From: an uncultured Holophagales bacterium
Lineage (GTDB): Bacteria; Acidobacteriota; Thermoanaerobaculia; UBA2201
Length of the DNA: 64,000 bases
Direction of reading: 5' to 3'
Assembly: GCA_964603505.1 (NCBI GenBank)
Contig: CAZRVT010000001.1
Coordinates: 52,215 to 116,214 of the forward strand
The notes under the pieces are model-generated. The model had not been told where the DNA came from, did not search any database, and worked only from the letters and a program-made list of their open reading frames with translations. Below, one piece after another: positions 2,573-18,335 of the stretch. The translations under genes were made by a program, and so were the position numbers. Position 1 is the stretch's first letter, and every line of letters begins with the position of its first letter.

Positions 2573-2958
2573 GGCCGTCGGAGTTTCCCGGGCCGGGCCG
2601 TCCCCGGCGGCACCTCGGAACTCCCCCGGAGTCCCGCTTGGTAGAGGCGCCCGCAGCTCTCGAAGAGCGGCAGGTGGGTGGCCAGCAGGACGATGCCGCG
2701 GGCCCGCGCGAGCTCCACGATCTCGGGCGAGGGGCGCTTGCCGCGGACGAAGCAGATGGCCATGATGCCCGACATCTCGGCGGTGTAGACCACCTGGAGG
2801 GTGGTGAGCCCCGAGAGGAGGATGCTATTGGGCTCCATCAGGGCGAGGACGTCGCTCATGAGGTCCGCCCCGCCCCCGCACTGGATTTCCTGATCGATGG
2901 ACTCCGAGCCGCAGAGCACCGAGGCCTCCAGGATCTCGCGGATCTTGATCAGGTTCAT
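2569..2958 (-). CDS. DRTGG-domain protein (second copy)
   Basis: Similar to the 1323-1667 protein (LLSGLTTLQVVYTAEMSGI..). Start placed at the MNLIKIRE Met rather than the ORF's upstream Met. Confidence 0.6.
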   Translation of the reverse strand: MNLIKIREILEASVLCGSESIDQEIQCGGGADLMSDVLALMEPNSILLSGLTTLQVVYTAEMSGIMAICFVRGKRPSPEIVELARARGIVLLATHLPLFESCGRLYQAGLRGSSEVPPGTARPGKLRRP

Positions 2959-3029
2959 GCCGGACGCGCCCCCTTCTTCCCTCGATTCCCCCTTCATCAT
3001 AGCATACCGGCCCGGCGCTCCGCGCGGCA

Positions 3030-3058
3030 TTGACACCGGGGGCGGGAACGGCTACACT
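3030..3058 (+). promoter_or_regulatory. sigma70-type promoter for tRNA-Arg (TTGACA-N17-TACACT)
   Basis: TTGACA at 3030-3035, 17-nt spacer, TACACT at 3053-3058, 12 nt upstream of the mature tRNA 5' end. Confidence 0.45.
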
Positions 3059-3070
3059 GGGGCCTCTTTC

Positions 3071-3144
3071 GGGGTTGTAGCTCAGCAGGATAGAGCAACG
3101 GATTCCTAATCCGTAGGCCGCCGGTTCGACTCCGGCCAGCCCCA
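3071..3144 (+). tRNA. tRNA-Arg (anticodon CCT)
   Basis: Cloverleaf: acceptor GGGGTTG/CAGCCCC, D-arm AGCTCAGCAGGATAGAGC, anticodon loop TTCCTAA, T-arm GGTTCGACTCC, discriminator A. No encoded CCA. Confidence 0.9.
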
Positions 3145-3439
3145 TTCTTCCATCTATCAATGATTCAAAGGCCTTTCAAGCCGTTGCCGGCCTTCCGGCC
3201 CACGGCATGGATGAGCGTCCATAGGCCATGGATGGGCCTCCCAGTGTACCCAAAGTGTACCCGTCCGTTTTTGCTATTTTGAGGACCAGTCTGGCTGAAA
3301 AAGGGACGAGCCCAAAAACTAAAAGATTTCCACCGATGGACGGAATTTCGGAATGTATTGAGCCATCCTCAATTTTTTCACGTCCTGATCTCAAAATCCG
3401 AGGGCAACACTGTGGGGATCATTTCCCAAAGGGGTTGTT

Positions 3440-4080
3440 ATGGGAAATGCCCGATACAAGCATTTGAGTGCGGAAGAACGAGAAGAACTGACGATCGATT
3501 GGGCGTTGGGGATGAGGCTGCGGGCCATGGCCCGCAGCCTCCAGCGCCCCCCTCCGACGGGAGGTGGCTCGCCATGGGCCGTCCGGGCATGACGCCCGGG
3601 CCGCCGACGCCCCGCAGCGGGCCCAGGCCCGGAGCTGGCGTCCCCGGCGGAGGCGAACATGGCTGCATCCTCGGCGCCGGGAGGCCGTCGTGGGACATGG
3701 CCCGCGGATCGCCCGCGCCGATTGTGGCCCGGTTGAAACTGGACGAGGCCCGCCGGGCCTTCGAACGCTGCCTCCGCCCCGTTCCCGAACCCCTCCGCCC
3801 GTCCCTCACCGATAGCCAGGACAAGGCAATGGCCGACCATGAACGCTTGGCCCGGAACCTTCCTATCCGCATCTTCTTCGCCGCCCCCCCACAGCCCATG
3901 GCCGCGGGGCACCATCGAGAACATCAGCGGCCTGCTCCGCCGGTCCCTCCCGAAAGGGATCGACCTCCCCTGTTACTCCCAACGGGGACTCAACGCCATC
4001 GCCGCCAGTCCCCACACCCGCCCTGCCAAGGCTTGGGATGGCCTCCTTTCGACGAAGTCTTTGTGCGGCCCTAACCTAAT
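3440..4080 (+). mobile_element. Decayed IS30-family transposase (multiple frameshifts and internal deletion)
   Basis: Frame 1: MGNARYKHLSAEEREELTIDWALGMRLRAMARSLQRPPPT.. matches the IS30 N-terminal HTH (YxHLTxEER..G.S.R.IAR.L.R..ST). A different frame at 3839-4096 gives ENISGLLRRSLPKGIDLPCYSQRGLNAIAASPHTRPAKAWDGL, matching the IS30 C-terminus (NENTNGLLRQYFPKGTDLS..LD.IA..LN.RPRK.LG). About 640 bp versus about 1 kb for an intact gene. Confidence 0.6.
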
Positions 4081-4223
4081 CCAGTGTTGCACTTGAATCT
4101 TGAAAGCAGTGCGAAGCGACGATTATTGTTCGAGCAGGTTTTGGATGAGGTCATCCGCTCTCTTGATTTCAACCCGTGCCCCGGAATACAATGAAATTCG
4201 CCGTCATCCATAGAGGAGGACAC

Positions 4224-7200
4224 ATGGCCAAACCCCTGAACATTTCCGTAAAGAAAGCCCCCTGGGTGGCCAAGCAGGAGAAGATCAAGAATGTCTTTCC
4301 GGGCCCCCGGGGTGAATTGCTTTTGATCACCAATGCTTCAATCTATCAGGCCTTGCCGATGGGCGACTGGCGCCTCATCGGTCCTTTGCCAGACATAGAT
4401 GATTCGAAGATCCATGCCGGCATGGGAAGGGATATGATCCTTTTATACTACAGGGATCTCGGCCTCGTGCAGGGGTATTCAATGCGCGGGACACTCCTGT
4501 GGACCGAGGCATGGCCGGAGGATCATCGCTGTTTCATGGTCGATGGCGAGGATATATTTTCCTGCGGGCAACACGAATATCTCTTCGCGCACGGCCGCTT
4601 TTCCCCAAAAGGGATCGAACGCATTCGATTCTTCCCGGAGACGATAGTGGTGGATGGGAATCGCATTATTTCTTTCGATCTGGTTTTCCCTTCGGAGGAT
4701 TCCATCATCCTCGTGGATAAAGGCTATTTGCAGACGGTCGTGTCCCTGTCCAAATCCTTTCTGGCAGGCGGACCCGCCGGCGCGCGCCTGCTGGACCGGA
4801 CGGAACGAGACACGGTGTACCCCAACTGCCATGTGCTCGTCATCAAGGGCCAGGTGTTTCTCCTGAACGATCTGGACGACCCGGCGCTTTCCTTCGTTCC
4901 GGGCCCCAACCCGATCCGCCCCCTCCCCGTGCCGGCCAGATTAGCCCAGTTCGGACTTCTGGAACGGTTCCGCCGGGGGACCCCCAGGGACCTGGATGAG
5001 GTCGCGCTGGTGATTGCCCATTTGAGCGCCTTGGCAGCATCCGACCGTTCATCATCCTTCGACGACCAGGAGACCCTGATCTCCATCCGGCCGGATACAA
5101 CCGGTGTGACCGCCTACACCAGCCACCGGACCCACCACTATCCCCCCGGTGCGCGATGGCTTTCTTCCCTAAAGGAAGTGGACCGCCGGGAAATCCGGTC
5201 CGCGGACGATTATGCAGGCGCCATGGCCATGTTCACCCTGCTCCAGAAGGGCGACGCCGGCCTGGCGGCGGCCATGAAGTTTCTGGTAAGGGCCCCAAGT
5301 TCCGTGCAACGGATGATCTGTGGCTATCTCCTGGCGCGGGGCCCCGGCGCAGTGGATCGCATGCTCTCCCTGATCAATCCCACCCTCCTGTCCCTCCCTC
5401 CCCAGGTCCGGGACGAAGCCAACATCTCCGCCCTCATCGGGGCTTTCCCGGACCGCCTCCCCCGGCACGCCCCGCGTGCGCTGAGGGAACGGGCTCTACC
5501 CATCCAAGCCCGATGGGCCTGGCTGGAAGGCCTGGGCCAGTCTGGAGGGTGGCGGAGGGGAACGAATGGAATCGTCTTGTGCTCCACTTCCCATCGCCGG
5601 CCGCCCCTCCCCACCGGCCTGGTCCATCAGCTCCGCAAAGAACTCAAGGGGCCGGCGCCGGTCCAAGCGGCCATGGCCTTGGACCGGCTGGGATTACCGG
5701 ATCGGCTGAACGCGCTGCGCCGGAACTTCGACAAGGAGGACTCCTATGATGCCTCCTCGGCGCTCATGACATTGATCAGCCATGAGACGGACCCGGAGCG
5801 CCTCTCCCGATTGTTCGAGGAGCGCTTCCCCCCCAACGGTCCGGCCCCTCGGATCCGAATGCCCGACCTGGACGATCACCTTCCCGGAAATATGCGGGAG
5901 CTCGCGGCCGGCATCCTGAGCGGCCATCTCTTCGGGCGGGACCCCGCGGCCTATTTCGGTGACTTCATCGAAAGCCAATTGCAATGGCATCTATCCGCCT
6001 TCCTGAAGATCACCCAGGAGAAACAGCTCCCGCTCATTCTGCGATTCCTGCGGGCCGCCCTGGTCGCCCTGAGGGAAGATCAGGACGATCCCTTGGGACG
6101 CGCCCTGGGCGAAGAGACCATGCAGCGGGTCGTCCGGGACACGGTCTCATTTGGCTTCCATCTGCCCATCGCGGACGCCATCGCTTTAGGTGCCCTGATT
6201 CTCACCGGTATGCCCACGATGGCTGATTTCGTTCAGGGGGACAAACTCTCCCGCATTCTTGGCATTCTCCTGGGGCGCCGCGTTGCCGGCCAAGCATCCC
6301 CCTTCTCCGGGCCCAGTGCCCAGTGGACGCAAAGGCATTTTGAACTGGTGCAGCCGATGGTGGAATACCTCAATATCCACCGGCCGGAGGAGGCCTTTCG
6401 GATCCAGGCCATGTTCGCGTTCCGGGGCCTGCCGGTCCATGTCATGGGGCTCGTCTCCACGAAAGGACCGCGCACCCACGCCGACCGTCTGCAGGCCTTC
6501 GGGACCCAGACCGACGGGGCCACCCTGCCGTCGCCGGAGGCGCTGGAGGACCGGGTCCGAGCCGGGATGCGGCATGGAGACCTGCTCGACCGCTTCACCT
6601 GGGCCCAGATCTGGGCGTATCGGGGCTTGGAGGCGTGGGAAGAGGAGATGCCGGACCTGTTGCGCCGTCTGCACCCGCGGTCTCCCTGGACGACGGGCCT
6701 GGCGTTATCGGTCCTCTCCCCCGAGGATCGGCAGGAGGCCGTCCGGAAACATCTCCGGGCGCCCTGGCTCACCGACGCCCACCTTTCGCTCTGGCTCAAG
6801 GGGTGGGACGCCCTGTCGAGCATCGGCTTCATCCGGGACGCGGCGAAGGCCAGGCACTGGGAACCTTCAATGGTTTTGGGCCTGCTGGAGGCCAAGTTCC
6901 ACTCGGCCCGCCCCGAAGTGAGCCAGAACGCGATGGAGGCCTACATGGACCTGTGGTCGGCCTCCCAACCGGACGATGAATCCGGCTTGATGGGCGCCAT
7001 GTATTGCGTCGAGGAGGGTCGTCTGGGTCACTCTCCGGACAAGGCCCTGGACCTTCTGGAAAGAACCATCAAGCGGCTCACCGACTCGGATAGAATGGAC
7101 GCATCCCAGGCCGAGGCATACCGCAAACGGGTGGCGCGCGCGAGAAGGCGGCTGAAAAGCGGCCGCATCGAACCCCCCGAAGAAAGCGGCATCGGCGCCT

Positions 7201-7247
7201 TGAGCTTGCCCGAAAAGGATCCGTCCGGCCGCCCAAGCCAATCTTGA
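4224..7247 (+). CDS. Large (1007 aa) mostly alpha-helical hypothetical protein
   Basis: Long ORF; strong RBS AGAGGAGGA 5 nt before the ATG at 4224 (the track's 4176 start is upstream of the RBS). First ~700 nt are markedly AT-richer than the genome. No Walker A or other catalytic motif recognised. Confidence 0.7.
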   Translation: MAKPLNISVKKAPWVAKQEKIKNVFPGPRGELLLITNASIYQALPMGDWRLIGPLPDIDDSKIHAGMGRDMILLYYRDLGLVQGYSMRGTLLWTEAWPEDHRCFMVDGEDIFSCGQHEYLFAHGRFSPKGIERIRFFPETIVVDGNRIISFDLVFPSEDSIILVDKGYLQTVVSLSKSFLAGGPAGARLLDRTERDTVYPNCHVLVIKGQVFLLNDLDDPALSFVPGPNPIRPLPVPARLAQFGLLERFRRGTPRDLDEVALVIAHLSALAASDRSSSFDDQETLISIRPDTTGVTAYTSHRTHHYPPGARWLSSLKEVDRREIRSADDYAGAMAMFTLLQKGDAGLAAAMKFLVRAPSSVQRMICGYLLARGPGAVDRMLSLINPTLLSLPPQVRDEANISALIGAFPDRLPRHAPRALRERALPIQARWAWLEGLGQSGGWRRGTNGIVLCSTSHRRPPLPTGLVHQLRKELKGPAPVQAAMALDRLGLPDRLNALRRNFDKEDSYDASSALMTLISHETDPERLSRLFEERFPPNGPAPRIRMPDLDDHLPGNMRELAAGILSGHLFGRDPAAYFGDFIESQLQWHLSAFLKITQEKQLPLILRFLRAALVALREDQDDPLGRALGEETMQRVVRDTVSFGFHLPIADAIALGALILTGMPTMADFVQGDKLSRILGILLGRRVAGQASPFSGPSAQWTQRHFELVQPMVEYLNIHRPEEAFRIQAMFAFRGLPVHVMGLVSTKGPRTHADRLQAFGTQTDGATLPSPEALEDRVRAGMRHGDLLDRFTWAQIWAYRGLEAWEEEMPDLLRRLHPRSPWTTGLALSVLSPEDRQEAVRKHLRAPWLTDAHLSLWLKGWDALSSIGFIRDAAKARHWEPSMVLGLLEAKFHSARPEVSQNAMEAYMDLWSASQPDDESGLMGAMYCVEEGRLGHSPDKALDLLERTIKRLTDSDRMDASQAEAYRKRVARARRRLKSGRIEPPEESGIGALSLPEKDPSGRPSQS

Positions 7248-7329
7248 AATAGCCCGGCTTGCCGCGCCCGAAGAGTCATGGGCCGAACGCTTCCCTCGGC
7301 GGCACGGGGGTATCGGCCCTTTTGATATA

Positions 7330-9789
7330 ATGGCTTCAATGGACGAGGCCCGGTTCCACGAACTTGCCCGGCAAGTCAACCGCTATTGGGGGGCGCATCT
7401 CTTTCCTCGCGTTGTGGACCAGGGGCCCGCGCGGATGGATTGGTACTATGTCTCCGTGGCCCGGGACCAACTGCTCAAGGGCGACGACCGGGTTCTACAC
7501 CTTCTCTTGCACGAATGGGGCCACCGAACCATTTCACCCGCCAACATCGAGCAGGGGATCGCGTGGGGCGTTTTTCTTGAACAGGAGGGGATGGGGTCCG
7601 CGGAAGCGCAGGACCTTGTCAACATCGCCGCCGATGTCTGGGTGGACGACCGCTATCTCTCGCTCGATCCGTGGAAAGAGCTCTACGCGCGTTCCATCAC
7701 CCGCCAAGTCGGGGAGATCCGGGAACAGCTCGCCCAGGACCGGCGACGGGGGGATTTCCCTTACGCCGACAAGGTCCTGCGTTTTATGGGCGGAATCTAC
7801 GAAGCCATGCTCGTGGCCCATGGGTACCCTCCGCCGCCGGGGGGAGGCGGCAAGGGAGACGCGCCCGCCAAAGCCGGACGGCGGGCCTACGCGGCCCTGA
7901 CCGATCCCCTATCGCCGGTGGAGGAGCGGCTGAGGGCCCTGGTCCGCGAGGGGGGCCGCTATGTCGCCGACCTTAACCGCCTGAAGCGTCTGGTGGACCT
8001 GTTGGCCCGGTGGGGCCGCTCTTCCATCCTTCCCGAGGACGCCGACCTTCCCTTGGACCTCTCCCGCCTCGCCCGCCTTCTGCGCCAGATGAGGGTCAAG
8101 AGCGAAACGGCCGGCAACTCCAGCCTCGTCCCTGCCCGTCACCGGCGGGCCTTGGCGATGGAAGTGCGCAAATTGGAGCTCTACGAGCTCGTGGTCACCC
8201 CCATGGAGCGGTTGTTGCGGCGGCGCACCCCCCGCGAGCGCTGCGGGTTCCAGATTTGGAACGCCGGAATGCCCATGCGTTGGCTCTTGGTGGAGGAGAC
8301 GATCCAGCGGCACGGCGAGGTCCTGGCCAATGTGACCACCCTCCGACGGGCCCATCGGAACCGGGGTCCGGAATCGTCTGCCGGCTCGGCCGCCCATGTG
8401 TGCTGCGTCATCGACGACAGCGGTTCCACATCGGGGGCCGCCATTCAACGGGAGCAGGAGGCCTCGTTCGCCGTCATCCAGACGGCCCGGCGGAAGCGCG
8501 ACCTCTTTTCCGTCGTCGTTTTCGGGACGCGCGTCACCCATGCGATGGAGCCGGGATTCGATTACCTGGCGGGGGAAGACCTCATTTGTTCGCTCGGAGG
8601 GCTCAGCGGGGGAACCGCCCTTCTGCCCGCCCTGCAGCAGGCCCTGGCCTACTCCGAGCGCGGGACGAGCACCTCCACCCTGGTGTTCACCGACACGGGC
8701 GTGTATGACCTGGAAGATTGCCTGCCGGCCATGGAGGTCCTCGCGCGGCGGGGGCGCCTGGTCCTTTTCTGTTTCGCCTCCTCTGCGGAGGTGGCGGCAT
8801 TCCGACGCAAGATCCCCAGGCGCGCCAACCCGACCTTTTTCAACAGCGTCCTGCCCCTCCTCTCGGAGCGGCGGGTGACCTTCCGAGACAAGGTCTTCGA
8901 AAGCCCCGGCTACATCATGTTTCTGGACCGCAACCCCCATGACGAGGCGAGCAACGAGATCCCGCGCGCGTTCATGGACCGCATCGACTTCGGCTTCGAC
9001 CTTCCGGTCATGCATATCGACGAGACCCTGCGGCTATACGACCGGATCACGGTCCGACAGAAACTGCACTGGGGCTCCCTGGAGCACCTGGCGCCGGCGG
9101 TATTGCGCGTGGAAGAACTGGTCCGAATCTGGGCCGCGGTCCAGGAGGTCGCCATCGATATTCGGCAGCGGGTGTGGGCCTGCATGCTCTCGGACGCCTT
9201 CCGCCTCTGCATCAAGCAGGAGCGCTCGGAGCTCTCCCCGGATTTCGTTCTGAACTGCGCCGACTGCAAGTTCCAGGCGGAGATCTGCGCCCATCTCCAG
9301 CAGATCCCCGGCCACCGGTTCACCCACAGCACCCTGCGGCTGGCCCAGGCCCGGGCCTGGCTCAACGGGCAGGCGCGCGTGTCCGAAGAAGACATCACCT
9401 GGGCCCTCCCCTACACCCTCGCCCATCGCCTCGTCCTCAAGCCGGAGCTCATGCGGCAGACCCCCTCGACGGCCCAATGGCTCCACAAGACCGCTTGCGG
9501 AGAGATCCTGGCCAACAAGGAACCGGTGTGGCGGGCGGCCCTCGACGGGTTCATGGCCGGCGACGCCGCCGCCCTGGAGAGGACCTGGCAGCAGGATTTG
9601 GTCATCCAGACCATGTTCATGTTCATGCGCACCGAGGGTTACCGGGACTTCATCACCCCCTACATCGAGTCGGGTCCCAAGGCCAAGGTCGAGCGCCTCC
9701 GCGCCGCCCCCCCCCGTGGACGGCACCGGAAAGGCCCCGGCCCGGAAGGCCAAGCGCCACCGGTAGGGGCTACGCCATTTCGATCATGA
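7330..9789 (+). CDS. Putative metallopeptidase-like (HExxH) + VWA/MIDAS-domain protein (DUF2201-type), 819 aa
   Basis: N-terminal LLLHEWGHRT (HExxH). Mid-protein VCCVIDDSGSTSGA (DxSxS MIDAS) ..VVVFGT..GGTALLPAL..TSTLVFTDTG (VWA fold). Confidence 0.7.
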   Translation: MASMDEARFHELARQVNRYWGAHLFPRVVDQGPARMDWYYVSVARDQLLKGDDRVLHLLLHEWGHRTISPANIEQGIAWGVFLEQEGMGSAEAQDLVNIAADVWVDDRYLSLDPWKELYARSITRQVGEIREQLAQDRRRGDFPYADKVLRFMGGIYEAMLVAHGYPPPPGGGGKGDAPAKAGRRAYAALTDPLSPVEERLRALVREGGRYVADLNRLKRLVDLLARWGRSSILPEDADLPLDLSRLARLLRQMRVKSETAGNSSLVPARHRRALAMEVRKLELYELVVTPMERLLRRRTPRERCGFQIWNAGMPMRWLLVEETIQRHGEVLANVTTLRRAHRNRGPESSAGSAAHVCCVIDDSGSTSGAAIQREQEASFAVIQTARRKRDLFSVVVFGTRVTHAMEPGFDYLAGEDLICSLGGLSGGTALLPALQQALAYSERGTSTSTLVFTDTGVYDLEDCLPAMEVLARRGRLVLFCFASSAEVAAFRRKIPRRANPTFFNSVLPLLSERRVTFRDKVFESPGYIMFLDRNPHDEASNEIPRAFMDRIDFGFDLPVMHIDETLRLYDRITVRQKLHWGSLEHLAPAVLRVEELVRIWAAVQEVAIDIRQRVWACMLSDAFRLCIKQERSELSPDFVLNCADCKFQAEICAHLQQIPGHRFTHSTLRLAQARAWLNGQARVSEEDITWALPYTLAHRLVLKPELMRQTPSTAQWLHKTACGEILANKEPVWRAALDGFMAGDAAALERTWQQDLVIQTMFMFMRTEGYRDFITPYIESGPKAKVERLRAAPPRGRHRKGPGPEGQAPPVGATPFRS

Positions 9790-9861
9790 TCATGCGCCCC
9801 ATGGGCGCAGTCCCGGCGACGAGGAGGGCGATGATCCGCTCCCACAGGCCGCCGGCGCGCA

Positions 9862-10202
9862 TCACGGGCGCACCCGCTTGAGCCAGCCCCCCAGCATCTT
9901 CCCCACGGGGTCCAGTTCCGTACAGAGGTGGTGGTACTTCTTCCGCCGGAGGTACCCCATCCCCGCCGCCAGGCGCAGGGTGAGGCGGAAGCCGTCAGGG
10001 CGGCCGAGGCCTCGCGCACCGCCCGAGGCGGGTCGAGGCCGTTCAATGCCCGGACGCAGGCGTCGCGGACGGCGAATAATTCGTCCTCCAGCCGCTTCCC
10101 CAGCGTGAAGCGGTGGTCGCGGGGGAACCGGCCGATTGGCGGCAGGAGCCACTCCAGGATGGATTGCATTTTCATCACCACAGGATAGTCGGTGTCGGTC
10201 AT
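9862..10202 (-). pseudogene. avd: avd (DGR accessory variability determinant) homologue with a single-nucleotide frameshift near 9996
   Basis: Frame A gives MTDTDYPVVMKMQSILEWLLPPIGRFPRDHRFTLGKRLEDELFAVRDACVRA..REASAAL (Avd hallmark FPR[DS][HE][KR]F.LG.R[IL]E). Frame B continues DGFRLTLRLAAGMGYLRRKKYHHLCTELDPVGKMLGGWLKRVRP* (Avd C-terminal LRF..RLA......Y..L...L.EIGKMLGGW). The junction gccctg/acggcttc would read ..AALDGFR.. if one G were restored. RBS GGGGGA before the ATG at 10202. Confidence 0.65.
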
Positions 10203-10274
10203 CTTGTCCCCCACCCACCAGGCAGTGGGCAGATAGCCAATGGAAAGGAGCGGGAACAGCGTTCCCCCGGGTGG

Positions 10275-10751
10275 TCACTCCCCCTGTTCCAAGTATTCCT
10301 TTTTCCCGAGAAGAAAGAGAAGATCTTCCTGGTCGCGCGGCCGCACGCCCCGTTTGGTCTCGATCAGCGTGGAAAGGCCGCACAGCGGGATGGTCGAACC
10401 GTCCAGGACCAGTTCCTCCACATCGCCGACCGCGGTCTCGAATGTGACCTCCCCCACCCTACCGATGAGGTCAATGACGACCTCCCCGGATGCCGGAGCG
10501 AACCGGACGACCGCATATTGTGCTACCTCCCCGTCCCCCAGCCCCAGGATCTCCTCCGAGCCATACGCCCGGTGGAGCGCCTCCTTCATCCTCCGGATGT
10601 TTTCGGGATCGGGGTCCACGAGCAGGTCGATGTCCTGCGTCGTCCGGAAGTAACCGTGAAGGGCGATAGCGCAACCGCCGATCACCACATAGCGGACCCC
10701 GGCGCCGTTGAGGGCCCGGCATAGCTTAACGAGTTCGTCCTTGATTTCCAA
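10275..10751 (-). CDS. Nucleotidyltransferase-fold protein (minimal NTase, GG..DxD)
   Basis: LEIKDELVKLCRALNGAGVRYVVIGGCAIALHGYFRTTQDIDLLVD matches the [GS]G-x9-13-DxD NTase core. No in-frame ATG; start assumed TTG at 10751, so boundary uncertain. Overlaps the upstream small ORF by ~25 nt. Confidence 0.5.
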   Translation of the reverse strand: MEIKDELVKLCRALNGAGVRYVVIGGCAIALHGYFRTTQDIDLLVDPDPENIRRMKEALHRAYGSEEILGLGDGEVAQYAVVRFAPASGEVVIDLIGRVGEVTFETAVGDVEELVLDGSTIPLCGLSTLIETKRGVRPRDQEDLLFLLGKKEYLEQGE

Positions 10752-10956
10752 GGCGGATCCGCGCCCGCATGGCCTGCGCCTGGGCCTCGTGAAAGGTTTC
10801 GAAACGGTACAGTCCCGGGGGCATTTGGATCGTGGGGGTGAACGCCAGGGCACTCTCAATATGCGCCCGATCGGGCGTGAAACGCCGGCTGATCCCTTTT
10901 CCCCCGGCCTCGAAACGCTCCGCGTCCTCGAAGCTCTTAAATTTAAAAATGGACAT
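10726..10956 (-). CDS. Small hypothetical protein (76 aa)
   Basis: ATG with good RBS (AAAGGTGA-N4-ATG); MSIFKFKSFEDAERFE.. Local GC lower than genome. No family recognised. Confidence 0.45.
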   Translation of the reverse strand: MSIFKFKSFEDAERFEAGGKGISRRFTPDRAHIESALAFTPTIQMPPGLYRFETFHEAQAQAMRARIRLGNQGRTR

Positions 10957-11120
10957 GGATCACCTTTCTCTATGATGATACCACACGACCTTCCCGTCCA
11001 TTCTCCCGGCAGATGGCCAATGGGATAGGGGGCAACGCCGGCGGCCTGACGGCCGCGATGGGAAAAAACCCCAAGTCCATCCCCCGCCCCCAAACCCCAA
11101 AACCGAAACCAAAAGCAAGG

Positions 11121-12989
11121 TCACCTGTCCTGGGCGCAACGGAAGCCGAGGTAGCAGTCCCCGCGGCCGGGGTCGCCCCCGTTGCGGTTGGAGACGCGCA
11201 GGTCCCCGGGGTGGAAGTACCAGGAACCGCCGCGCAATATCCGAGATTCGCTACCGCCTGTAACCCAAGCCCGGCCATCCATTGGGGCGCCCTGGTAATT
11301 ACCGTTCCCCCGGTCTTCGCACCACTCCCACACATTCCCCGCCAGGTCCAGGTGCCCGAACGGACCCATCCCCTCCGGATACTCGCCCACCGCCGAGGGG
11401 TGGCCGAGAGCTTCATCATAATTGGCCCGGCCCGCGTTCGGCTCCCCGTTCCCCCACGGATATTTCCGCCCATCCTTCCCCTTTGCCGCATACTCCCACT
11501 CCGCCTCGCTCGGCAACCGCAGCCCCGCCCATTTAGCATATGCTTTTGCTTCTTCCCAATTCACGTTTACCACCGGGTGGTCGGGGTAGCCCTCCAGGTA
11601 ATTGCCTTCCAGCTCATCGAATGTGCCATCGTTGCGCTCCATGAATTCCTCCAGGTCCCCGGCCCGGGCGCTCTTAAGATAGGCCAGAAACTGCCGGTTC
11701 GTCACCGGATGCTTGTCAAGCCAGAAGCCCGTTCTGAAGGTCACCTTGTGGACGGGCTTCTCATCGCCATAGGCCTCTTCATCTTCGCTCCCCATCATAA
11801 ACTCCCCGGGCGGCACCCAGACCATGACATGTCCGTTCTTAAGCTCCTTCTCGTAATAGCCCTTTTCGTTCTTCCGGATCCCCTCCCGCTGGTGAGGCGG
11901 CGGCAGATTGGGGTCTTGGGCCGCCACGCGCTCCTCCTCCAGCCCTTCCAGCCGCTTCTTCGCCGCCCCGGCGTCCGGCCGCTTGGAGCCATCCTTGTTC
12001 AGCAGTGTTCCCAAGGCGCCCCACAGCGCATCGTCCGCTTCCTGGGGCCGGCGCGCCTCCACCGTGCAGTGCTGGGAGCGCACCAGCTCCGCGTCCGGAT
12101 CGGTGAACGGGGCCCGCCCCGCCAGCATCTCGTACAACATTATGCCCACCGCGTAGACGTCCACCTTCCCCGTGATCTCCTCCCCCCGGATCCGCTCCGG
12201 CGCCATGTACCACGGCGTCCCCATGAACTTCCGGGCCTCCGACGCCGCCGACACCTGGCTCCGCGTGATATCCACGCTGATGCCGAAGTCGATGATCTTG
12301 GCGTTGCCGGTCTTCTTTTCGATCAGGATGTTCTCCGGCTTGATGTCCAGGTGGTAGATGCCCTCGTGGTGGGCCTCGGCCAGCCCCTCCAGGATCTGGG
12401 CGCAGATCTTGACCGCCTCCGGCTCAGGAAGGGTCTTGCGCTCATTAAGGACCTCCCGCAAACTCTGTCCTTCAACATAGGCCACGACTAGATATTCGTA
12501 CTCCCCATCCCTGCCCAGGTCGAAGACCCTGTTAATGTGGCGGTGGCTGAGACTGCTGAGGCGCCGGTATTCTTTGCGGAGGTTGTCAAGGGAGACGGGA
12601 TCGTATTCCCGCCCGGCCTTCAGGACCTTGAGGACTTTCTTGTCTCCAGTGCGCTCGTCGTGGGCCAGGAGGACATCGCCCTGTCCCCCGCTGGAAAGGG
12701 GCCGCTCCACCTTGTACCGTCCTTCGAGAACAGTGCCGGGACCAAGCATGGGCATGAAGGTGCCAACGGGGGCCGGGGGGATGGGGGACCGGGCCGGAAC
12801 CCCGGCGGGGCGGGGGGGCGGAGGCGGCCCCGACGGCGTGGGCGTCATCCCCCCCAGCGCCGCCCGCTCCTCGGGGGCCAGATCGGCCAGGATCTCCGCC
12901 TTGAGCTCCCGGTACATCTCCTCGCCGATCTCCTTGGCCAGGAAGCGTTCTCTCAGCACCCTCAATTGGCGCCGGGCATCGTCGGTCAT
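11121..12989 (-). CDS. SHOCT-like N-terminus + Ser/Thr protein kinase + C-terminal FGE-sulfatase/C-type-lectin-fold domain; candidate DGR variable protein
   Basis: Kinase motifs: SSGGQGDV (Gly loop), VLKVLK (Lys), YHLDIKPENILI (non-RD catalytic loop), IIDFGIS (DFG), YMAPE. C-terminal domain WLDKHPVTNRQFLAYL..NVNWEEAKAYAKWAG..RLPSEAEWEYAA..GNVWEWCED..RILRGGSWY..LGFRCA is the FGE-sulfatase fold. No signal peptide or TM, so predicted cytoplasmic. Confidence 0.85.
   Translation of the reverse strand: MTDDARRQLRVLRERFLAKEIGEEMYRELKAEILADLAPEERAALGGMTPTPSGPPPPPRPAGVPARSPIPPAPVGTFMPMLGPGTVLEGRYKVERPLSSGGQGDVLLAHDERTGDKKVLKVLKAGREYDPVSLDNLRKEYRRLSSLSHRHINRVFDLGRDGEYEYLVVAYVEGQSLREVLNERKTLPEPEAVKICAQILEGLAEAHHEGIYHLDIKPENILIEKKTGNAKIIDFGISVDITRSQVSAASEARKFMGTPWYMAPERIRGEEITGKVDVYAVGIMLYEMLAGRAPFTDPDAELVRSQHCTVEARRPQEADDALWGALGTLLNKDGSKRPDAGAAKKRLEGLEEERVAAQDPNLPPPHQREGIRKNEKGYYEKELKNGHVMVWVPPGEFMMGSEDEEAYGDEKPVHKVTFRTGFWLDKHPVTNRQFLAYLKSARAGDLEEFMERNDGTFDELEGNYLEGYPDHPVVNVNWEEAKAYAKWAGLRLPSEAEWEYAAKGKDGRKYPWGNGEPNAGRANYDEALGHPSAVGEYPEGMGPFGHLDLAGNVWEWCEDRGNGNYQGAPMDGRAWVTGGSESRILRGGSWYFHPGDLRVSNRNGGDPGRGDCYLGFRCAQDR
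11124..11231 (-). repeat. Putative DGR variable region (VR) at the 3' end of the kinase-FGE gene
   Basis: Coding codons between GGSW and LGFRCA read TAC TTC CAC CCC GGG GAC .. AAC CGC AAC GGG GGC GAC CCC GGC CGC GGG GAC TGC TAC. Almost all are NNC codons reachable from AAC by changes at A positions only, and two AAC are retained. Invariant scaffold (GGSW, LRVS, R, LGFRCA) flanks them. Confidence 0.55.
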
Positions 12990-13246
12990 GCGGTTATTCT
13001 ACCGGGAGATGCCAACGCCTGCAACAATGGTTATAAACGGCCTTCGCCGACAGCGGGTGTGGCTTCCTATTTGCGGGCGGAACGCCACTCCAGGTAATCC
13101 TCCCAGCGGCACCGCCAGCCCACCCCTTCCTCCTGCGTGAAGACGGGGATGCGGCCAGTGAGCCAAGCGCGATTCGGGAGACGCGGGGACTGGCACCACC
13201 CCCTCACCCTGCCCTCCATTCCATTCCCCGTTTTTCTTCCCCACGG

Positions 13247-14707
13247 TCATGATTGATAGATCAGGATCCTCTCCTCCGTCATCTCGTGGATGGCCCACCG
13301 GACGCCCTCCTTGCCCGCGCCCGACTGCTTCACCCCGCCGTAGGGCTGGTGGTCCACCCGGAAACTGGAGGCGTCGTTGACCACCAGGCCGCCGACGTGG
13401 ATCTCCCGGAACGCCTCCTGGATCCAGTCGGCTCGGTTGGTGAAGAGCGCCGCCTGGAGGCCGAACCGGCTGGCGTTGACCAGCTCGATCGCCTCGCGGA
13501 AGTCGGCGAACGGCGTCAGGGTGACGAGCGGGGCGAAGGCCTCCTCGTCCCACACCTTCATCCCCGGCCGGGCCCCCTCGAGCACGACGGGGTGGAGCAC
13601 CTTCCCCTCCCGCCTCCGCGGCGTCAGGAGGTTGCACCCCTTCTCCACCGCCTCGTCCACCCACCCCTCGATCCGCTTGACGGCGCCGGTGTCGATCATG
13701 GGGCCGATGAAGGTCTCCTCGTCGCGGGGGTCGCCCACCTTCAGCTTGACCACGTCGGCCAGCAGCCTCTCGGTGAAGGGGGCATAGACCCGCTCGTGGA
13801 CGAGGATGCGCTGGACCGAGATGCACGACTGCCCGGCGTAGGCCAGGCCCCCGGTGGCGCACTTGACCGCGGCCACGTCCAGGGCGGCGTCGTCGCACAC
13901 GACGACGGCGGCGTTGCCCCCTAATTCCAGGGTGACGAACTTATCATAGGCGCGCCGCTTCACCTCCCAGCCCGTCTCGGCCGAGCCGGTGAAGGAGACG
14001 AAGGCGACCTCGGGGCGGGTGTAGAGTTTCTCGGCGCGGGAGGAGACCATGGGGAGGAACGACACCGCCTCCTCCGGGTAGCCGGCGTCCAGGACCATCT
14101 GCATCAGCTTCCAGGCCGAGAGGGGGGTCTTGGAGGAGGGCTTGAGGAGGAACGGGCACCCGGCCGCCATGGCAGGGGCGAGTTTGTGGGCCACGAGGTT
14201 GAGGGGGAAGTTGAAGGGGGTGATGCCCGCGACGATGCCGCGGGGGAACCGGGCGACGACCCCCACCTTCCCCTCCGCCCACGGGACCCGGTCGAGGGGG
14301 AGCACCTCGCCGCCAATGCGGCGGGCCTCCTCGGCGGCCGTCTCGACGGTGAAGGCGGCCCGCGCCACCTCGGCCCGGGCCTGCCCGAGGGGCTTGCCGG
14401 CCTCCAGGCAGATGGTGGCCGCCAGGTCCTCCTTGTTCTTCTCCACCAGCTCCTTCAGCCGCATCAGGATCTGGTGCTTCATGTAGCCGGAAAGGTTGCG
14501 CGTCTGGTAGAAGCCCCGCTCGGCCTTCTCGACCGCCTTCTGGATGTGCTCCTCCCCCGCCAGGGCGACGAGCCCCACCTCGGAGCCGTCGAAGGGAAAG
14601 GTCACCTTGAGGGGGTCGGGGGTCATGATCCACTCGCCGCCGACCAGCAGGGGGTATTCCGTCACGCGCCATTCCAACTTACCCATCGCCGCCTCCTTGA
14701 ACAACAC
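13247..14707 (-). CDS. NAD(P)-dependent aldehyde dehydrogenase family protein
   Basis: ALDH signatures FTGS.ETG, LELGGNA, catalytic Cys in AGQSCIS, EEAFAP..; 486 aa. Confidence 0.85.
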   Translation of the reverse strand: MLFKEAAMGKLEWRVTEYPLLVGGEWIMTPDPLKVTFPFDGSEVGLVALAGEEHIQKAVEKAERGFYQTRNLSGYMKHQILMRLKELVEKNKEDLAATICLEAGKPLGQARAEVARAAFTVETAAEEARRIGGEVLPLDRVPWAEGKVGVVARFPRGIVAGITPFNFPLNLVAHKLAPAMAAGCPFLLKPSSKTPLSAWKLMQMVLDAGYPEEAVSFLPMVSSRAEKLYTRPEVAFVSFTGSAETGWEVKRRAYDKFVTLELGGNAAVVVCDDAALDVAAVKCATGGLAYAGQSCISVQRILVHERVYAPFTERLLADVVKLKVGDPRDEETFIGPMIDTGAVKRIEGWVDEAVEKGCNLLTPRRREGKVLHPVVLEGARPGMKVWDEEAFAPLVTLTPFADFREAIELVNASRFGLQAALFTNRADWIQEAFREIHVGGLVVNDASSFRVDHQPYGGVKQSGAGKEGVRWAIHEMTEERILIYQS

Positions 14708-14765
14708 AGGGGCACGGCATGCCGTGCCCCTGCTGGATTGCCGATGCCCGAATCAGGGGATCATC

Positions 14766-15590
14766 CTATTTGATCGTGTACTCCGGCGCCTCGGGGATGC
14801 CCTCCCGGCGCCCGGTGGTGCGCTGGCCGTGGACGACGCCGCACGGCTTCTTCGCCTTGAGCAGCTTCAGGTAGTCGAAGACGAGGCGGCGCTTCATGAG
14901 CTGGATGGCCTTGGCCGGGTCCACCCCCTTGGGGCAGGCGGCGGAGCACTCGGAGCCGAAGTGGCACGAGAAGACGCCGCTCTTCCGGTCCACCGCACCG
15001 GCCCTTTCGGCGAAGCCGCCGTCGCGGCTGTCGGCCGAGTAGCGGTAGCCCTGGGCCAGCGGCATGGGGCCGGGATAGTCGCGGTCGGCGGCCATGGTGG
15101 GGCAGGCGGCCATGCAGGCCCCGCAGCGGATGCAGTAGGAGAACTGGAGGTAGGCCTCCAGCTCGTGCGGGGTCTGGTGGAACTCCCCGGAGGGCTTCTC
15201 CATCTCCGCCTTGTCGTCGCGGATGATGAAGGGCTTGACGGCCTGGTGCTTCTCGAACATCGGAGTGAGGTCGGGGACGAGGTCCCGCACGGTGTGGAAG
15301 TTGGGCAGGGCGGCCACGGCGACCGTGGAGCATTTCAGGGCCGCCACCTGGGTGTTGCAGGCCAGGGTGGGGCGGCCGTTGATGAGCATGGCGCAGGAGC
15401 CGCACACGCCCATCCGGCACGAGTAGCGCCACGCCAGGCCGGGGTCGGCGTGCATCTTGATCCAGTGGAGGCCGTCGAGCACCGTCATCCCCTTGGTGTT
15501 GGGAACCTCGAAGGACTTCCAGGCGGGGGCGGCGTCGGTCTCCGGGTTGTACTTGCGGACGCGGAAGGTGATGGTCTTGGATTCGCTCAT
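14766..15590 (-). CDS. sdhB: Succinate dehydrogenase/fumarate reductase iron-sulfur subunit
   Basis: 2Fe-2S (CRMGVCGSC), 4Fe-4S (CIRCGACMAACP) and 3Fe-4S (CHFGSECSAACP) cysteine clusters. Confidence 0.85.
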   Translation of the reverse strand: MSESKTITFRVRKYNPETDAAPAWKSFEVPNTKGMTVLDGLHWIKMHADPGLAWRYSCRMGVCGSCAMLINGRPTLACNTQVAALKCSTVAVAALPNFHTVRDLVPDLTPMFEKHQAVKPFIIRDDKAEMEKPSGEFHQTPHELEAYLQFSYCIRCGACMAACPTMAADRDYPGPMPLAQGYRYSADSRDGGFAERAGAVDRKSGVFSCHFGSECSAACPKGVDPAKAIQLMKRRLVFDYLKLLKAKKPCGVVHGQRTTGRREGIPEAPEYTIK

Positions 15591-15602
15591 GGGGTCCCCT
15601 TA

Positions 15603-15983
15603 TCAGCCCTTCGTCGCCATGGCCCGGGCGGCGATGGCGGCGTAGGTCCCGACGACGAAGAGGGCCACGCCGAGCGTGGCCAGGCATGCCGTGGCGCACC
15701 GCTTGAGGCCGGCCTGCAGGTTCGTCTCGCCGATGACGGTGTTGAGCCCGTAGAGGCCGTGGAAGAGGGCGGCCCCCAGCAGGACGACGTAGGAGACCAT
15801 GAAGAAGCCCATCTTCGCCCGGGCGACGACGTTGTCCCAGTGGATGCCTTCCCCGCCGGCGGGATTGAGGGCGGCGAAAGGCAGGTGGTCGTCCAGGTGC
15901 ATGATGACCATGTGGAGGCCGAGCAGGACCAGGATGACCAGCCCCGCGAGGATGTGCCAGGTCCAGAGGCGCGAATGTTTCAT
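15603..15983 (-). CDS. sdhD: Succinate dehydrogenase hydrophobic membrane anchor subunit
   Basis: 126 aa with three hydrophobic helices, positioned between the cytochrome b subunit and sdhB. Confidence 0.55.
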   Translation of the reverse strand: MKHSRLWTWHILAGLVILVLLGLHMVIMHLDDHLPFAALNPAGGEGIHWDNVVARAKMGFFMVSYVVLLGAALFHGLYGLNTVIGETNLQAGLKRCATACLATLGVALFVVGTYAAIAARAMATKG

Positions 15984-15993
15984 GGGTCCCTCC

Positions 15994-16434
15994 TCAGTGC
16001 TTCAGGAACTCGAGGCCGCCCGTGACGACGAAGGCGGCCGCGGCCAGCATCAGGATGACGGTGACGATCCGGCTGGCGTGCAGGCTGGTCTTGTAGGGGT
16101 AGACGGGCTCGATGGGCTTGCCCACGGCGAACCCCAGCTCCACCAGGACGAGCCGGAGGCCGTTGAAGGCGTGGAACCCGAAGGCCGCCAGGACCAGGAA
16201 CTCGCCGACCACGAAGACGGGGTGGCGGAGGAAGCCGCCGTCCCCCAGGAGGCGGTTCCACGGCCCGGGGCCGAACACCCGCGAGGTGGTGACGAGGATG
16301 TGGAGGAGGAAATAGGAGAGGATCCCCAGCCCGGTGACGCGGTGCAGGGTGTAGAGGTAGCGCTCCGGGCTCCAAGCCCCGCCGAACGCCCAGCCCTTGA
16401 TCCCCAGATGGTTGTCGTGGGTCTTTTGCGCCAT
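15994..16434 (-). CDS. sdhC: Succinate dehydrogenase cytochrome b subunit
   Basis: 146 aa membrane protein with heme-ligand His residues (HRVTG.., HILVT), adjacent to sdhA. Confidence 0.6.
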   Translation of the reverse strand: MAQKTHDNHLGIKGWAFGGAWSPERYLYTLHRVTGLGILSYFLLHILVTTSRVFGPGPWNRLLGDGGFLRHPVFVVGEFLVLAAFGFHAFNGLRLVLVELGFAVGKPIEPVYPYKTSLHASRIVTVILMLAAAAFVVTGGLEFLKH

Positions 16435-16511
16435 GACGGCCTCCTAAGCAGGTCGGCCTGCAGCCTTTTGGCTGCAGGCCGGAACAAAGGTTAGATTCCT
16501 GTCATCGTCAC

Positions 16512-16575
16512 GGCGGGAGAGGGCGATTCCCTCTCCCGCCGGGCGGAGTGAATCCGCCCGGTTCCACCCTCTCCC
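16512..16575. repeat. REP-like structured repeat, copy A (hairpin GGGAGAGGG..CCCTCTCCC + second hairpin + CCACCCTCTCCCC)
   Basis: cgggagagggcgattccctctcccg, then ccgggcggagtgaatccgcccgg, then ttccaccctctcccc. Paralogous to 28326-28389. Lies in the 176-bp sdhA-sdhC spacer, which also contains the hairpin cggcctgcagcc-tttt-ggctgcaggccg at 16462-16489. Confidence 0.55.
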
Positions 16576-16610
16576 CATGCGGAAACCATCCCGGCCACGC
16601 ATGGCCGGCC

Positions 16611-18335
16611 CTAGTATTTCCGCTCCACCGGCTTCCACCGCGTAATGGTCACCGGCTTGTAGTCCAGCTCGGGCCCCTTGGCCCCCTTCTTCACCAGGGT
16701 GTGTTTGAGGAACTTGGCGTCGTCGCGCGCCGGAAAGTCGCGGCGGGCGTGGCCGCCGCGGGACTCCTCCCGCGCCAGGGCCGCGGTGATCATCACCTCG
16801 GCCAGGTCGAGGAGGTTTTCCGTCTCCAGGACATTCACCAGGTTGCTGTTGTACACCTTCCCCTTGTCCGCCACGCCGATGTTGGAGAACCGCTTGCGCA
16901 GAACCGCCAGCTTCTCCAACCCTTCCCGCATCTTCTTCCCTTCGCGGTAGACCCCCATGTGCTGGTCCATCAGGGTCCGCAGCGCCTCGCGGATGGCGTA
17001 GGGGTTCTCGGGGCCGTTCTGGTTGAGCACGGCGCCGAAGACCCGCTTCTCCTCCGCCTCGGCCGCCGCCGTCGGCGCCGGCGGCAGGGCGGGGTTGGTC
17101 TTCATGAACTTCACGATCTCGGTTCCACAGATGTCGCCCCAGACGAGGCACTCGGCGGTGGAGTTGCAGCCCAGCCGGTTGGCCCCGTGCATCGAGACGC
17201 AGGCCACCTCGCCGGCGGCCCACACCCCCTTGGCCTTGCAGGCGCCCCGGAGGTCGCACTCCACACCGCCCATGCTGTAGTGCGCGACGGGACGGACCGG
17301 GATGGGCTCCTTGATGGGGTCCAGGTCGAGGAATTTGATGCACACCTCGCGGATGAGGGGCAGGGCATGGTTGATGCGGTCGGCCCCCAGGTGGCGCAGG
17401 TCCAGGTGGATGTAGTCGAGTCCGTTGGGGCCGGGGAAGCCGCGCCCCTCCAGGATCTCGGTCATCTCGGCGCGGGAGACGATGTCGCGCGGGGCCAGCT
17501 CCATGAACTTGGCGGCATACTTCTCCATGAACCGCTCGCCCTTGTGGTTGACGAGGTAGCCCCCCTCGCCGCGGCACCCCTCGGTCATCAGGATGCCCGA
17601 CGGGACCAGCCCGGTGGGGTGGAACTGCAGGAACTCGGGGTCCTCCAGGTTCAGCCCGGCGCGGTAGGCGTAGGCCTGCCCGTCGCCGGTGACCGTCTGG
17701 GAGTAGGTGGTGAAGCCGTAGAGGTTGCCCAGGCCGCCGCTGGCGATGAGGAGGGCCTTGCCGCGAAGGAGGACGAACTCCCCTTGGGCCAGGTCGTAGG
17801 CCGTGAGCCCCTTGAACTGGCCGTCCTCGATGAGGATGGAGGTGACGAAGACCTCGTCGTATCGCTCGTAATTGGCGTGCCGGAGCATCTCGTCGTAGAG
17901 CGACTGCATCTCGAAGAAGCCCGTCTTGTCGGCCGCCATGGTGGAACGGGGGTAGCTGTGGCCGCCGAAGGGGCGCTGGGCGATGCGGCCGTCCGGGTCG
18001 CGCGACCACGGGAGCCCCCAGTGGTCCAGGAGCAGGATCTCCTTGGGGCTCATCTCGACGAAGAGCTCCACGGCGTCTTGGTCGGCCAGGAAGTCGGAGC
18101 CCTTGACCGTGTCCCAGGCATGGAGCTGGAAGGAGTCCCCCTCCTCCGGCCGCAGGACCGCCCCGGTCCCCCCCTCGGCGCAGACCGAATGGGCGCGCAT
18201 GATCTGCACCTTGGAGACCAGGGCCATGCGGACGGCGTCGCCCAAAGTGCGGGCGATCTCCACGGCCGCCCGCAGGCCCGCCAGCCCCGTTCCGAAAATG
18301 ATCACATCGTGGGTTTTTTCGATCACCGGCGACAC
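16611..18335 (-). CDS. sdhA: Succinate dehydrogenase flavoprotein subunit
   Basis: [19 protein letters not shown] fold, [10 protein letters not shown] with the covalent-FAD His, HYSMGG; 574 aa. Confidence 0.9.

Follow-up and report, generated by a model that had tools for sequence, protein, structure and literature searches.

The stretch of DNA analysed here, a 64-kb segment of contig CAZRVT010000001.1 from an uncultured Holophagales bacterium (hereafter, the window), carries side by side two long open reading frames (ORFs) encoding proteins of 1007 aa (ORF1) and 819 aa (ORF2). The main result of our analysis is that this pair probably represents, with a likelihood that we place at roughly 0.75, the remains of a rare three-part MoxR-vWA module that was disabled by a deletion of ~0.5 kb fusing the gene for its vWA co-chaperone to that of its MoxR ATPase. 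ORF2 is overlong because the vWA gene is joined in frame to a truncated MoxR gene. The initial annotation of the window had singled out the 819-aa protein as much longer than typical for its kind, and the length of its relatives (~490-530 aa) bears this out; the excess, however, is due to the fused MoxR remnant and not to a novel architecture. Once the deletion has accounted for the giant protein, what remains is a rare, uncharacterised subfamily and a single orphan protein, ORF1.

Domain structure of ORF2

Three main parts can be told apart in ORF2, a real ORF on the forward strand (7330-9789). The N-terminal domain (aa 1-190; 7330..7899, forward strand) is zincin-like and bears the motif HEWGH (aa 61-65; nt 7510-7524), followed by a helix with the invariant residues N98, D102 and D106 (nt 7621-7647). 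Residues H61, E62, W63, G64, H65, R66, P70, N98 and D102 of ORF2 are found in 10/10 family members, and an AlphaFold2 (AF2) model of the domain consists of three beta-strands and then the HExxH helix, with a predicted local distance difference test score (pLDDT) of 60-80. The combination of the invariant LLHEWGHR and N98xxxD102 on this predicted strand-strand-strand-helix unit may constitute a zincin-like metal site, and the HEWGH domain is putatively a peptidase that could process either a client or the co-chaperone itself. The Pfam scan returned no zincin match for the domain, and no hidden Markov model (HMM) or fold match backed the site. A PDB profile search with the ten N-terminal domains yielded trypanosomatid mS29 (E 0.0015), which we judged to be a chance match: the similarity is limited to a shared EWGHR.i.P.s..R stretch (CEWGHR in mS29), in which the first His of the motif is a Cys.

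The VWA domain (aa ~351-497; 8380..8820, forward strand) has a complete metal ion-dependent adhesion site (MIDAS), made up of DDSGS (8413-8427), SGGT (8605-8616) and TD (8689-8694). The N-terminal HEWGH and the complete VWA/MIDAS were both part of the initial annotation and are confirmed here. In MoxR/VWA chaperone pairs, a VWA fold with an intact MIDAS (DxSxS...T...D) is the feature of the partner protein, and it is present in ORF2.

The remainder of ORF2 (aa 498-819; 8821..9789, forward strand) corresponds to the C-terminal two-thirds of a MoxR AAA+ protein, with 41-45% identity to the full-length MoxR proteins of the relatives. The earlier claim that no MoxR-type AAA+ protein is present is therefore incorrect, since this segment matches the Pfam family AAA_lid_2 with 38.3 bits (cut-off 22.7) at aa 668-712 (nt 9331-9465, forward strand). 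Following standard AAA+ nomenclature, the same segment contains sensor 1 (LDRNP, 8923-8937) and the Arg finger (AFMDRID, 8968-8988), both on the forward strand, as well as a four-cysteine (Cys4) insert at aa ~623-655 (~9196-9294, forward strand), with its last three cysteines at nt 9256-9294. The TIGR chelatase models TIGR02031 and TIGR02442 match ORF2 in the lid region only, with 20-28 bits against cut-offs of 500-779. Walker A and Walker B are missing from the segment, and no GxxxxGK[ST] (P-loop) motif was found in ORF2. The annotation of the Joint Genome Institute (JGI) nonetheless lists ORF2 as 'MoxR-like ATPase', though it lacks the ATP-binding site.

The start of ORF2 shows some peculiarities. 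Within 7320-7341 (forward strand), a perfect TATAAT shares bases with the ATG at 7330 and is situated 8 nt 5' of a second ATG at 7339, which is the start chosen in the JGI annotation (816 aa). No Shine-Dalgarno sequence is evident for ORF2, and the TATAAT was not flagged by a consensus promoter scan. The transcript of ORF2 could be leaderless.

The vWA-MoxR junction

The transition from vWA to MoxR in ORF2 takes place at KIPR/RANP (8809..8832, forward strand). Its 5' side matches the vWA gene, and its 3' side the MoxR gene just past Walker B. The closest relative, locus L003 (63% identity in the vWA part, 95% in the 56 MoxR codons that the two have in common), has the two genes separate and overlapping, and comparison with it resolves the junction. 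The L003 vWA protein reads KIPRHAN up to the breakpoint and IKIY beyond it, the L003 MoxR protein reads FLNEIQRAN and then PTFFNS, and the window protein reads KIPRRANPTFFNS. Over a longer span, the L003 vWA protein runs through FREKIPRHANIKIY to EVV and the stop codon (C-terminus FREKIPRHANIKIYAHPQGAQFLELTLQEVV), its MoxR protein carries both a Walker A (GTYGTGKT) and a Walker B region (LKFLNEIQRANPTFFNS; LKFLNEIQRANPTFFNSLLPLL), and ORF2 crosses the junction as FRRKIPRRANPTFFNS (FRRKIPRRANPTFFNSVLPLL). The corresponding DNA is AAGATCCCCAGGCGCGCCAACCCG in the window, AAGATCCCCCGTCATGCCAACATC in the L003 vWA gene and GAGATCCAGCGCGCCAACCCT in the L003 MoxR gene; compared with L003, the window is of vWA type through AAGATCCCC and of MoxR type starting at CGCGCCAACCC.

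The alignment of ORF2 to MoxR begins right after Walker B, and when five full-length MoxR proteins are aligned with it, ORF2 has no equivalent of any of the 19 invariant MoxR residues upstream of the transition. The aligned junction and the comparison with L003 therefore indicate a deletion of ~0.5 kb in which the vWA gene lost its final ~22 codons and the MoxR gene its first ~140. The two parental sites, separated by 500 nt in L003, both conform to AGATCC-N6-GCCAAC. The deletion would have occurred between these short similar sequences (AGATCC..GCCAAC), joining the two frames into the 819-aa chimera, and its mechanism was probably microhomology-mediated. A tblastn search of the 64-kb window with the N-terminal 140 aa of MoxR gave nothing significant, either for the lost N-terminal half or for a second MoxR, and the MoxR gene whose presence elsewhere had been contemplated in the initial annotation is thus represented in the window by the ORF2 remnant and no other.

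In the standard topology of the five-stranded AAA+ core, beta1 comes with the P-loop, followed by beta2 and by beta3 with Walker B. Having lost Walker A, Walker B and the first three strands of this core, the chimera should be unable to bind or hydrolyse ATP. The ATPase function of ORF2 has presumably been lost with them, and an AAA+ fold is improbable for the remnant; in the AF2 model, pLDDT is 22-38 over aa 506-727, as against 60-80 in the VWA domain.

A rare MoxR-vWA family

Homologues of ORF2 are few. Four, including ORF2 itself, were found in 5.8 billion protein clusters, and scans of genome and metagenome contigs contributed six more loci. The family thus amounts to about 10 loci, and those with taxonomic labels are metagenome-assembled genomes of Acidobacteriota (Thermoanaerobaculia, Holophagales). 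No relatives of the family that would point to a phage origin were found in viral contigs.

The HEWGH-vWA protein and a full-length MoxR are encoded by separate, adjoining genes in all six relatives with context (L001, L003, L007, L008, L010 and L011). In L001 and L003 the vWA gene comes first and its stop codon overlaps the MoxR start; in L007, L008, L010 and L011 the MoxR gene comes first. As the split state is common to six loci with either gene order, the nearest relative among them, the fusion in the window is the derived state. The notion that VWA proteins of this kind partner MoxR ATPases, already put forward in the initial annotation, is upheld by this gene-neighbourhood comparison, which places an adjoining MoxR gene in every relative with context. 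Every locus with enough context encodes a HEWGH-vWA protein of the size given above and a MoxR-clade AAA+ protein of ~400-450 aa. The vWA proteins of the relatives stop 20-40 aa past the VWA domain, and the C-terminal extension of ORF2 is the MoxR remnant.

Walker A and Walker B are present in the MoxR proteins of all six of these loci. The relatives' MoxR proteins match AAA_5, AAA_3, AAA_lid_2 and, weakly, bpMoxR, and their profile matches the solved MoxR structure 2r44 with a value of 6.5e-9. Two traits set the family apart: its Walker B has the form h-h-h-N-E, not D-E, and four invariant cysteines (C-x16-17-C-x2-C-x6-C, usually followed by a His) lie between the AAA+ core and the lid. The Cys4 insert could be zinc-binding or redox-sensing. 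The most likely assignment of the family is to a rare MoxR-vWA subfamily with an HExxH domain on the co-chaperone, not described before, of which the window copy is a disabled member.

The third gene of these loci is variable. Its slot is taken by one HEAT-repeat protein each in L006 and L009, which share 44% identity, and by HEAT-repeat proteins in L001, by an FG-GAP propeller protein in L008 and L010, by an FHA/FhaA cluster in L011 and by an uncharacterised 898-aa protein in L012. In the window this slot is occupied by ORF1 (4224..7247, forward strand), which lies 82 nt upstream of ORF2 on the same strand and is a real ORF with a Shine-Dalgarno sequence and codon-position GC of 0.66/0.47/0.77. 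No homologue of ORF1 beyond itself was found in 5.8 billion clusters (word-indexed search) or in 1.84 billion representatives (full phmmer search), no match was obtained in Pfam, NCBIfam or PADLOC, and self-comparison detected no internal repeats. The single-sequence AF2 model of ORF1 has a pLDDT of 41, too poor for a fold search, and was used for secondary structure only. On this low-confidence model, the earlier description of ORF1 as helical holds for aa ~235-980 and does not hold for the first ~215 aa, which are predicted to be beta-rich. Judged from its position alone, ORF1 is most likely a lineage-specific client or sensor scaffold of the module.

Base composition also varies along ORF1. 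Its first ~600 nt (4224-4830, forward strand) have a GC content at third codon positions (GC3) of 0.63-0.68, against ~0.8 in the rest, and coincide with the predicted beta-rich domain. The gene could be a mosaic of two origins.

Among the relatives, some neighbourhoods deserve mention in their own right. The MoxR/HEWGH-vWA pair of L011 is embedded in an FHA/FhaA-rich cluster (2675-16972 of that locus), preceded by a TPR protein and followed by PBP transpeptidase and FtsW/RodA genes, an arrangement that resembles the actinobacterial FhaA-PbpA-RodA locus of Ser/Thr phosphosignalling. In L001, Metallophos, Pkinase and VWA_4 genes lie upstream of the pair, and an FtsH-like gene of 1117 aa, seen in this locus only, is located ~9.4 kb away on the opposite strand.

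The intact module and the status of the window copy

The intact module would have three parts: a co-chaperone of ~500 aa, in which the zincin-like HEWGH domain is connected by a helical linker to the VWA domain with its MIDAS; a MoxR-clade AAA+ ATPase of ~400 aa, encoded by a separate gene directly adjoining the vWA gene; and a variable repeat-scaffold partner (a HEAT-repeat or FG-GAP propeller protein). Its mode of action can be modelled on characterised MoxR/VWA pairs such as NorQ/NorD, which depends on both ATP hydrolysis and an intact VWA domain and in which that domain plugs the ring formed by MoxR (PMC9976466). By this analogy, the VWA/MIDAS would hold an acidic residue of a client or partner protein, and the MoxR hexamer would use ATP to remodel or release the client. 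In the window copy this mechanism would be disabled.

It is unlikely that the window copy is an active module, because it lacks Walker A and Walker B and sits among other decayed genes. This assessment must nonetheless be set against several observations that weigh in the opposite direction. ORF2 stays open for 322 codons past the junction, and its MoxR remnant retains 49 of 57 family-invariant positions 3' of the junction, including the Arg finger, sensor 1, the four cysteines and the lid. Five of the eight departures from invariant residues are also seen in the intact L003 gene, and over the 56 codons shared with L003 the remnant displays no excess divergence (dN 0.023, dS 1.13). Such low divergence would fit a very recent deletion and, equally well, a fusion still under selection, two readings that these data cannot separate. 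An attempt to date the deletion by dN/dS gave no usable result, dS being saturated in the comparison with L003, the nearest relative. As regards the third component, ORF1 has no similarity to the neighbour proteins of related loci (BLAST, phmmer) or to the HEAT-partner profile (hhalign), its link to the module consists only of adjacency (the 82-nt gap on the same strand) and positional analogy, and the L003 contig is too short to display the gene upstream of vWA.

Part of this evidence could be accommodated by assuming that the fusion is a functional new protein in which the MoxR lid, Arg finger and Cys4 insert have been kept as a docking or regulatory domain. If a MoxR hexamer is encoded in another part of the genome, such a protein might plug into it or poison it; alternatively, it might act as an ATP-independent MIDAS adaptor for ORF1. 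The in-frame joining, the ORF remaining open to a normal-looking C-terminus, the retained invariant positions and the low dN all speak in its favour, and natural inactive AAA+-VWA fusions are established in BchD/ChlD, even if the match of ORF2 to TIGR02031 in the lid is weak. Like BchD/ChlD, ORF2 combines in one polypeptide a catalytically dead AAA+ part of the MoxR/chelatase clade with a MIDAS-bearing VWA domain. In BchD, however, the AAA+ part is N-terminal and its fold is complete, whereas ORF2 has the reverse order and has lost the first three core strands, and the conserved BchD/ChlD architecture contrasts with what in ORF2 is a one-off deletion product. With beta1-beta3 gone, beta4 and beta5 cannot make a normal fold, and AF2 confidence in this region is low. 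There is no other MoxR in the 64-kb window, the fusion is the sole case among ~10 loci, the adjoining genes are decaying, and a recent deletion explains the conservation of the remnant equally well. We therefore regard a functional fusion as rather improbable, while acknowledging that the vWA::MoxR remnant, being in frame, might survive in a regulatory capacity and not as a pseudogene. A recent disabling event is favoured over continuing constraint because the fusion is unique among the ~10 loci and the rest of the island is in decay.

The initial annotation had instead proposed a stand-alone, long metallopeptidase-VWA protein of DUF2201 type, with an HExxH motif, acting independently of MoxR and forming a conflict module with the 1007-aa protein. 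Proteins with DUF2201_N and DUF2201 (PF13203/PF09967), putative metallopeptidases, combine an N-terminal HExxH domain with a C-terminally placed VWA-like domain and are usually encoded near a MoxR gene, and the HEWGH-vWA protein follows the same domain logic. Its HEWGH and MIDAS are present and conserved, and its gene sits in an island next to components of a diversity-generating retroelement (DGR). The HMM search, on the other hand, does not sustain the DUF2201 assignment: DUF2201 (PF09967, VWA-like) is matched weakly in two of ten family members (best E 0.014), with VWA_2 and VWA_CoxE scoring higher, and DUF2201_N (PF13203) in none of the ten at E <= 10. The central helical linker of ~160 aa and the motifs LLHEWGHR and NxxxDxxVD are likewise distinct from those of DUF2201 proteins. 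Moreover, alignment to the split genes identifies the extra length as truncated MoxR, a dedicated MoxR gene adjoins the vWA gene in every relative with context, and there are no PADLOC matches. This reading now appears very improbable. Least credible of all is an assembly or sequencing artefact in which two short similar sequences were collapsed and the real vWA and MoxR genes are intact: the junction does fall in a short vWA/MoxR similarity and metagenome assemblies can mis-join, but an assembler graph would need a much longer match to collapse than the 6-9 nt that the two sites have in common, and the identical 819-aa ORF is found in a JGI contig of 179 kb, in a Logan assembly of SRR12686701 that was built independently (possibly from the same sample) and in the NCBI record.

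Relationship to known MoxR-vWA systems

The pair of vWA and MoxR genes behind ORF2 belongs functionally to the MoxR/VWA chaperone class. Measured against this class, ORF2 lacks the Walker A/B ATPase signature and carries the lid, sensor and Arg-finger elements. Several differences separate it from characterised pairs (NorQ/NorD, RavA/ViaA, CbbQ/CbbO and CoxD/CoxE), as the ATPase of the window is truncated and fused, unlike theirs. In contrast to NorQ/NorD-type pairs, the vWA protein of the window carries the N-terminal HEWGH zincin-like domain, the family MoxR has N-E in place of D-E in Walker B and, ahead of the lid, the Cys4 insert, and the neighbourhood contains no operon for a metalloenzyme client (nor, cbb, cox).

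A second term of comparison is provided by the MoxR-vWA ternary conflict systems, for which VMAP, iSTAND, FtsH and beta-propeller types have been described (Kaur, Burroughs, Iyer & Aravind 2020; PMC7159879). The likeness lies in a core of MoxR and vWA with a variable, repeat-built third component and, in the window, in the presence of a DGR remnant 73 nt downstream of ORF2; DGRs are known to associate with MoxR-vWA ternary systems (bioRxiv 10.1101/2023.09.22.558884). The bpMoxR model (PF20030, cut-off 27) scores 34.4 bits in L001, 28.5 in L007 and 21.1 in L008, always below AAA_5, and does not match ORF2, in which the corresponding region is mostly deleted. Unlike in the beta-propeller type, the vWA protein of the family, which stops ~30 aa past the VWA domain, has neither a C-terminal four-bladed propeller nor an effector domain. 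The third component of that type is made up of a variable N-terminus with TPR and beta-propeller regions; the partners in the relatives are HEAT-repeat (L006, L009, L001) or FG-GAP propeller (L008, L010) proteins, and ORF1, on its low-confidence model, has a beta-rich N-terminus and a helical remainder. An N-terminal HExxH domain has not been described for any of the ternary types. In the window, Pfam and NCBIfam searches of ORF1 and its neighbours detected no VMAP-C, iSTAND or adjoining FtsH-type component, VMAP-C being assessed by Pfam content only.

It is conceivable, although in our view less likely than not, that the ~10 loci represent an undescribed fifth type of MoxR-vWA ternary system, characterised by a zincin-like protease domain fused N-terminally to VWA, an N-E/Cys4 MoxR and interchangeable HEAT, FG-GAP or FHA partners; in this genome it would at one time have been wired to a DGR-diversified kinase-FGE sensor. 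As to the earlier suggestion of an accessory, possibly conflict-related module next to a DGR, the pair does sit in an accessory island beside DGR parts, but the window copy is unlikely to be active. By analogy with the ternary systems, a conflict-related accessory role seems plausible for the module.

The case of ORF2 carries a lesson for annotation, in that what looks like a giant, novel multidomain protein can turn out to be the product of two adjoining genes joined by a deletion. In biological terms, it has led to a very rare MoxR-vWA subfamily whose co-chaperone bears a conserved HExxH domain and whose repeat-protein partner varies. In the window this subfamily is physically linked to DGR remnants, one more observation bearing on the connection that has been proposed for MoxR-vWA ternary conflict systems and DGR-diversified sensors. 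The locus also offers a snapshot of the decay of an accessory island, although its direct importance is limited, given that the window copy is probably not functional.

The surrounding island

ORF1 and ORF2 are part of a low-GC3 island, the left boundary of which is a tRNA-Arg gene (CCT; 3071..3144, forward strand) identified by ARAGORN and by the Rfam tRNA model (71.8 bits). No att-like direct repeat of the 3' end of this tRNA was found elsewhere in the window. Directly after the tRNA lies a degraded remnant of an IS30-type transposase (3441..4070, forward strand), with an HTH_38 N-terminus, a frame-shifted C-terminus and no DDE core. In three-frame translation its N-terminal piece scores 26.9 bits with Pfam HTH_38, just below the 27-bit cut-off, and an apparent IS30-type C-terminal motif can be read by eye across frames.

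On the other side of the pair, a frameshifted pseudogene of the DGR accessory protein bAvd (9862..10210, reverse strand) is convergent with ORF2, 73 nt from its stop codon. The bAvd model (PF22296, cut-off 40) scores 26.5 bits over a partial match in the uncorrected sequence and 48.5 bits over the full length once frames are corrected. The template repeat (TR) and reverse transcriptase (RT) normally follow avd. There is no RT ORF in the 73-nt gap between ORF2 and bAvd, and a search of the 64-kb window for a TR resembling the 3' end of the kinase-FGE gene described below gave only one weak candidate, located inside a YmdB gene and attributed to chance. The cassette of the window, with bAvd frameshifted, without RT and with no TR found, consequently falls short of a DGR.

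The right part of the island contains an intact gene for a Ser/Thr kinase with a C-terminal FGE-sulfatase (CLec-type) domain (11121..12989, reverse strand; Pfam Pkinase 4.7e-53, FGE-sulfatase 2e-59), which also matches the PADLOC kinase models mad6 and PD-T4-6. A kinase with a C-terminal FGE-sulfatase/CLec domain is a typical architecture for a DGR target and, because no template repeat was found in the 64-kb window, the gene is at present an orphaned target. Between bAvd and the kinase-FGE gene, translations and JGI gene calls identify a nucleotidyltransferase-like gene and a small upstream ORF (10275..10956, reverse strand). The former has weak matches to NTP_transf_5, AbiEii, DUF6036 and DUF2204, all below the Pfam gathering cut-offs, and its start is overlapped by the latter (76 aa), an arrangement that could correspond to a toxin-antitoxin-like insertion.

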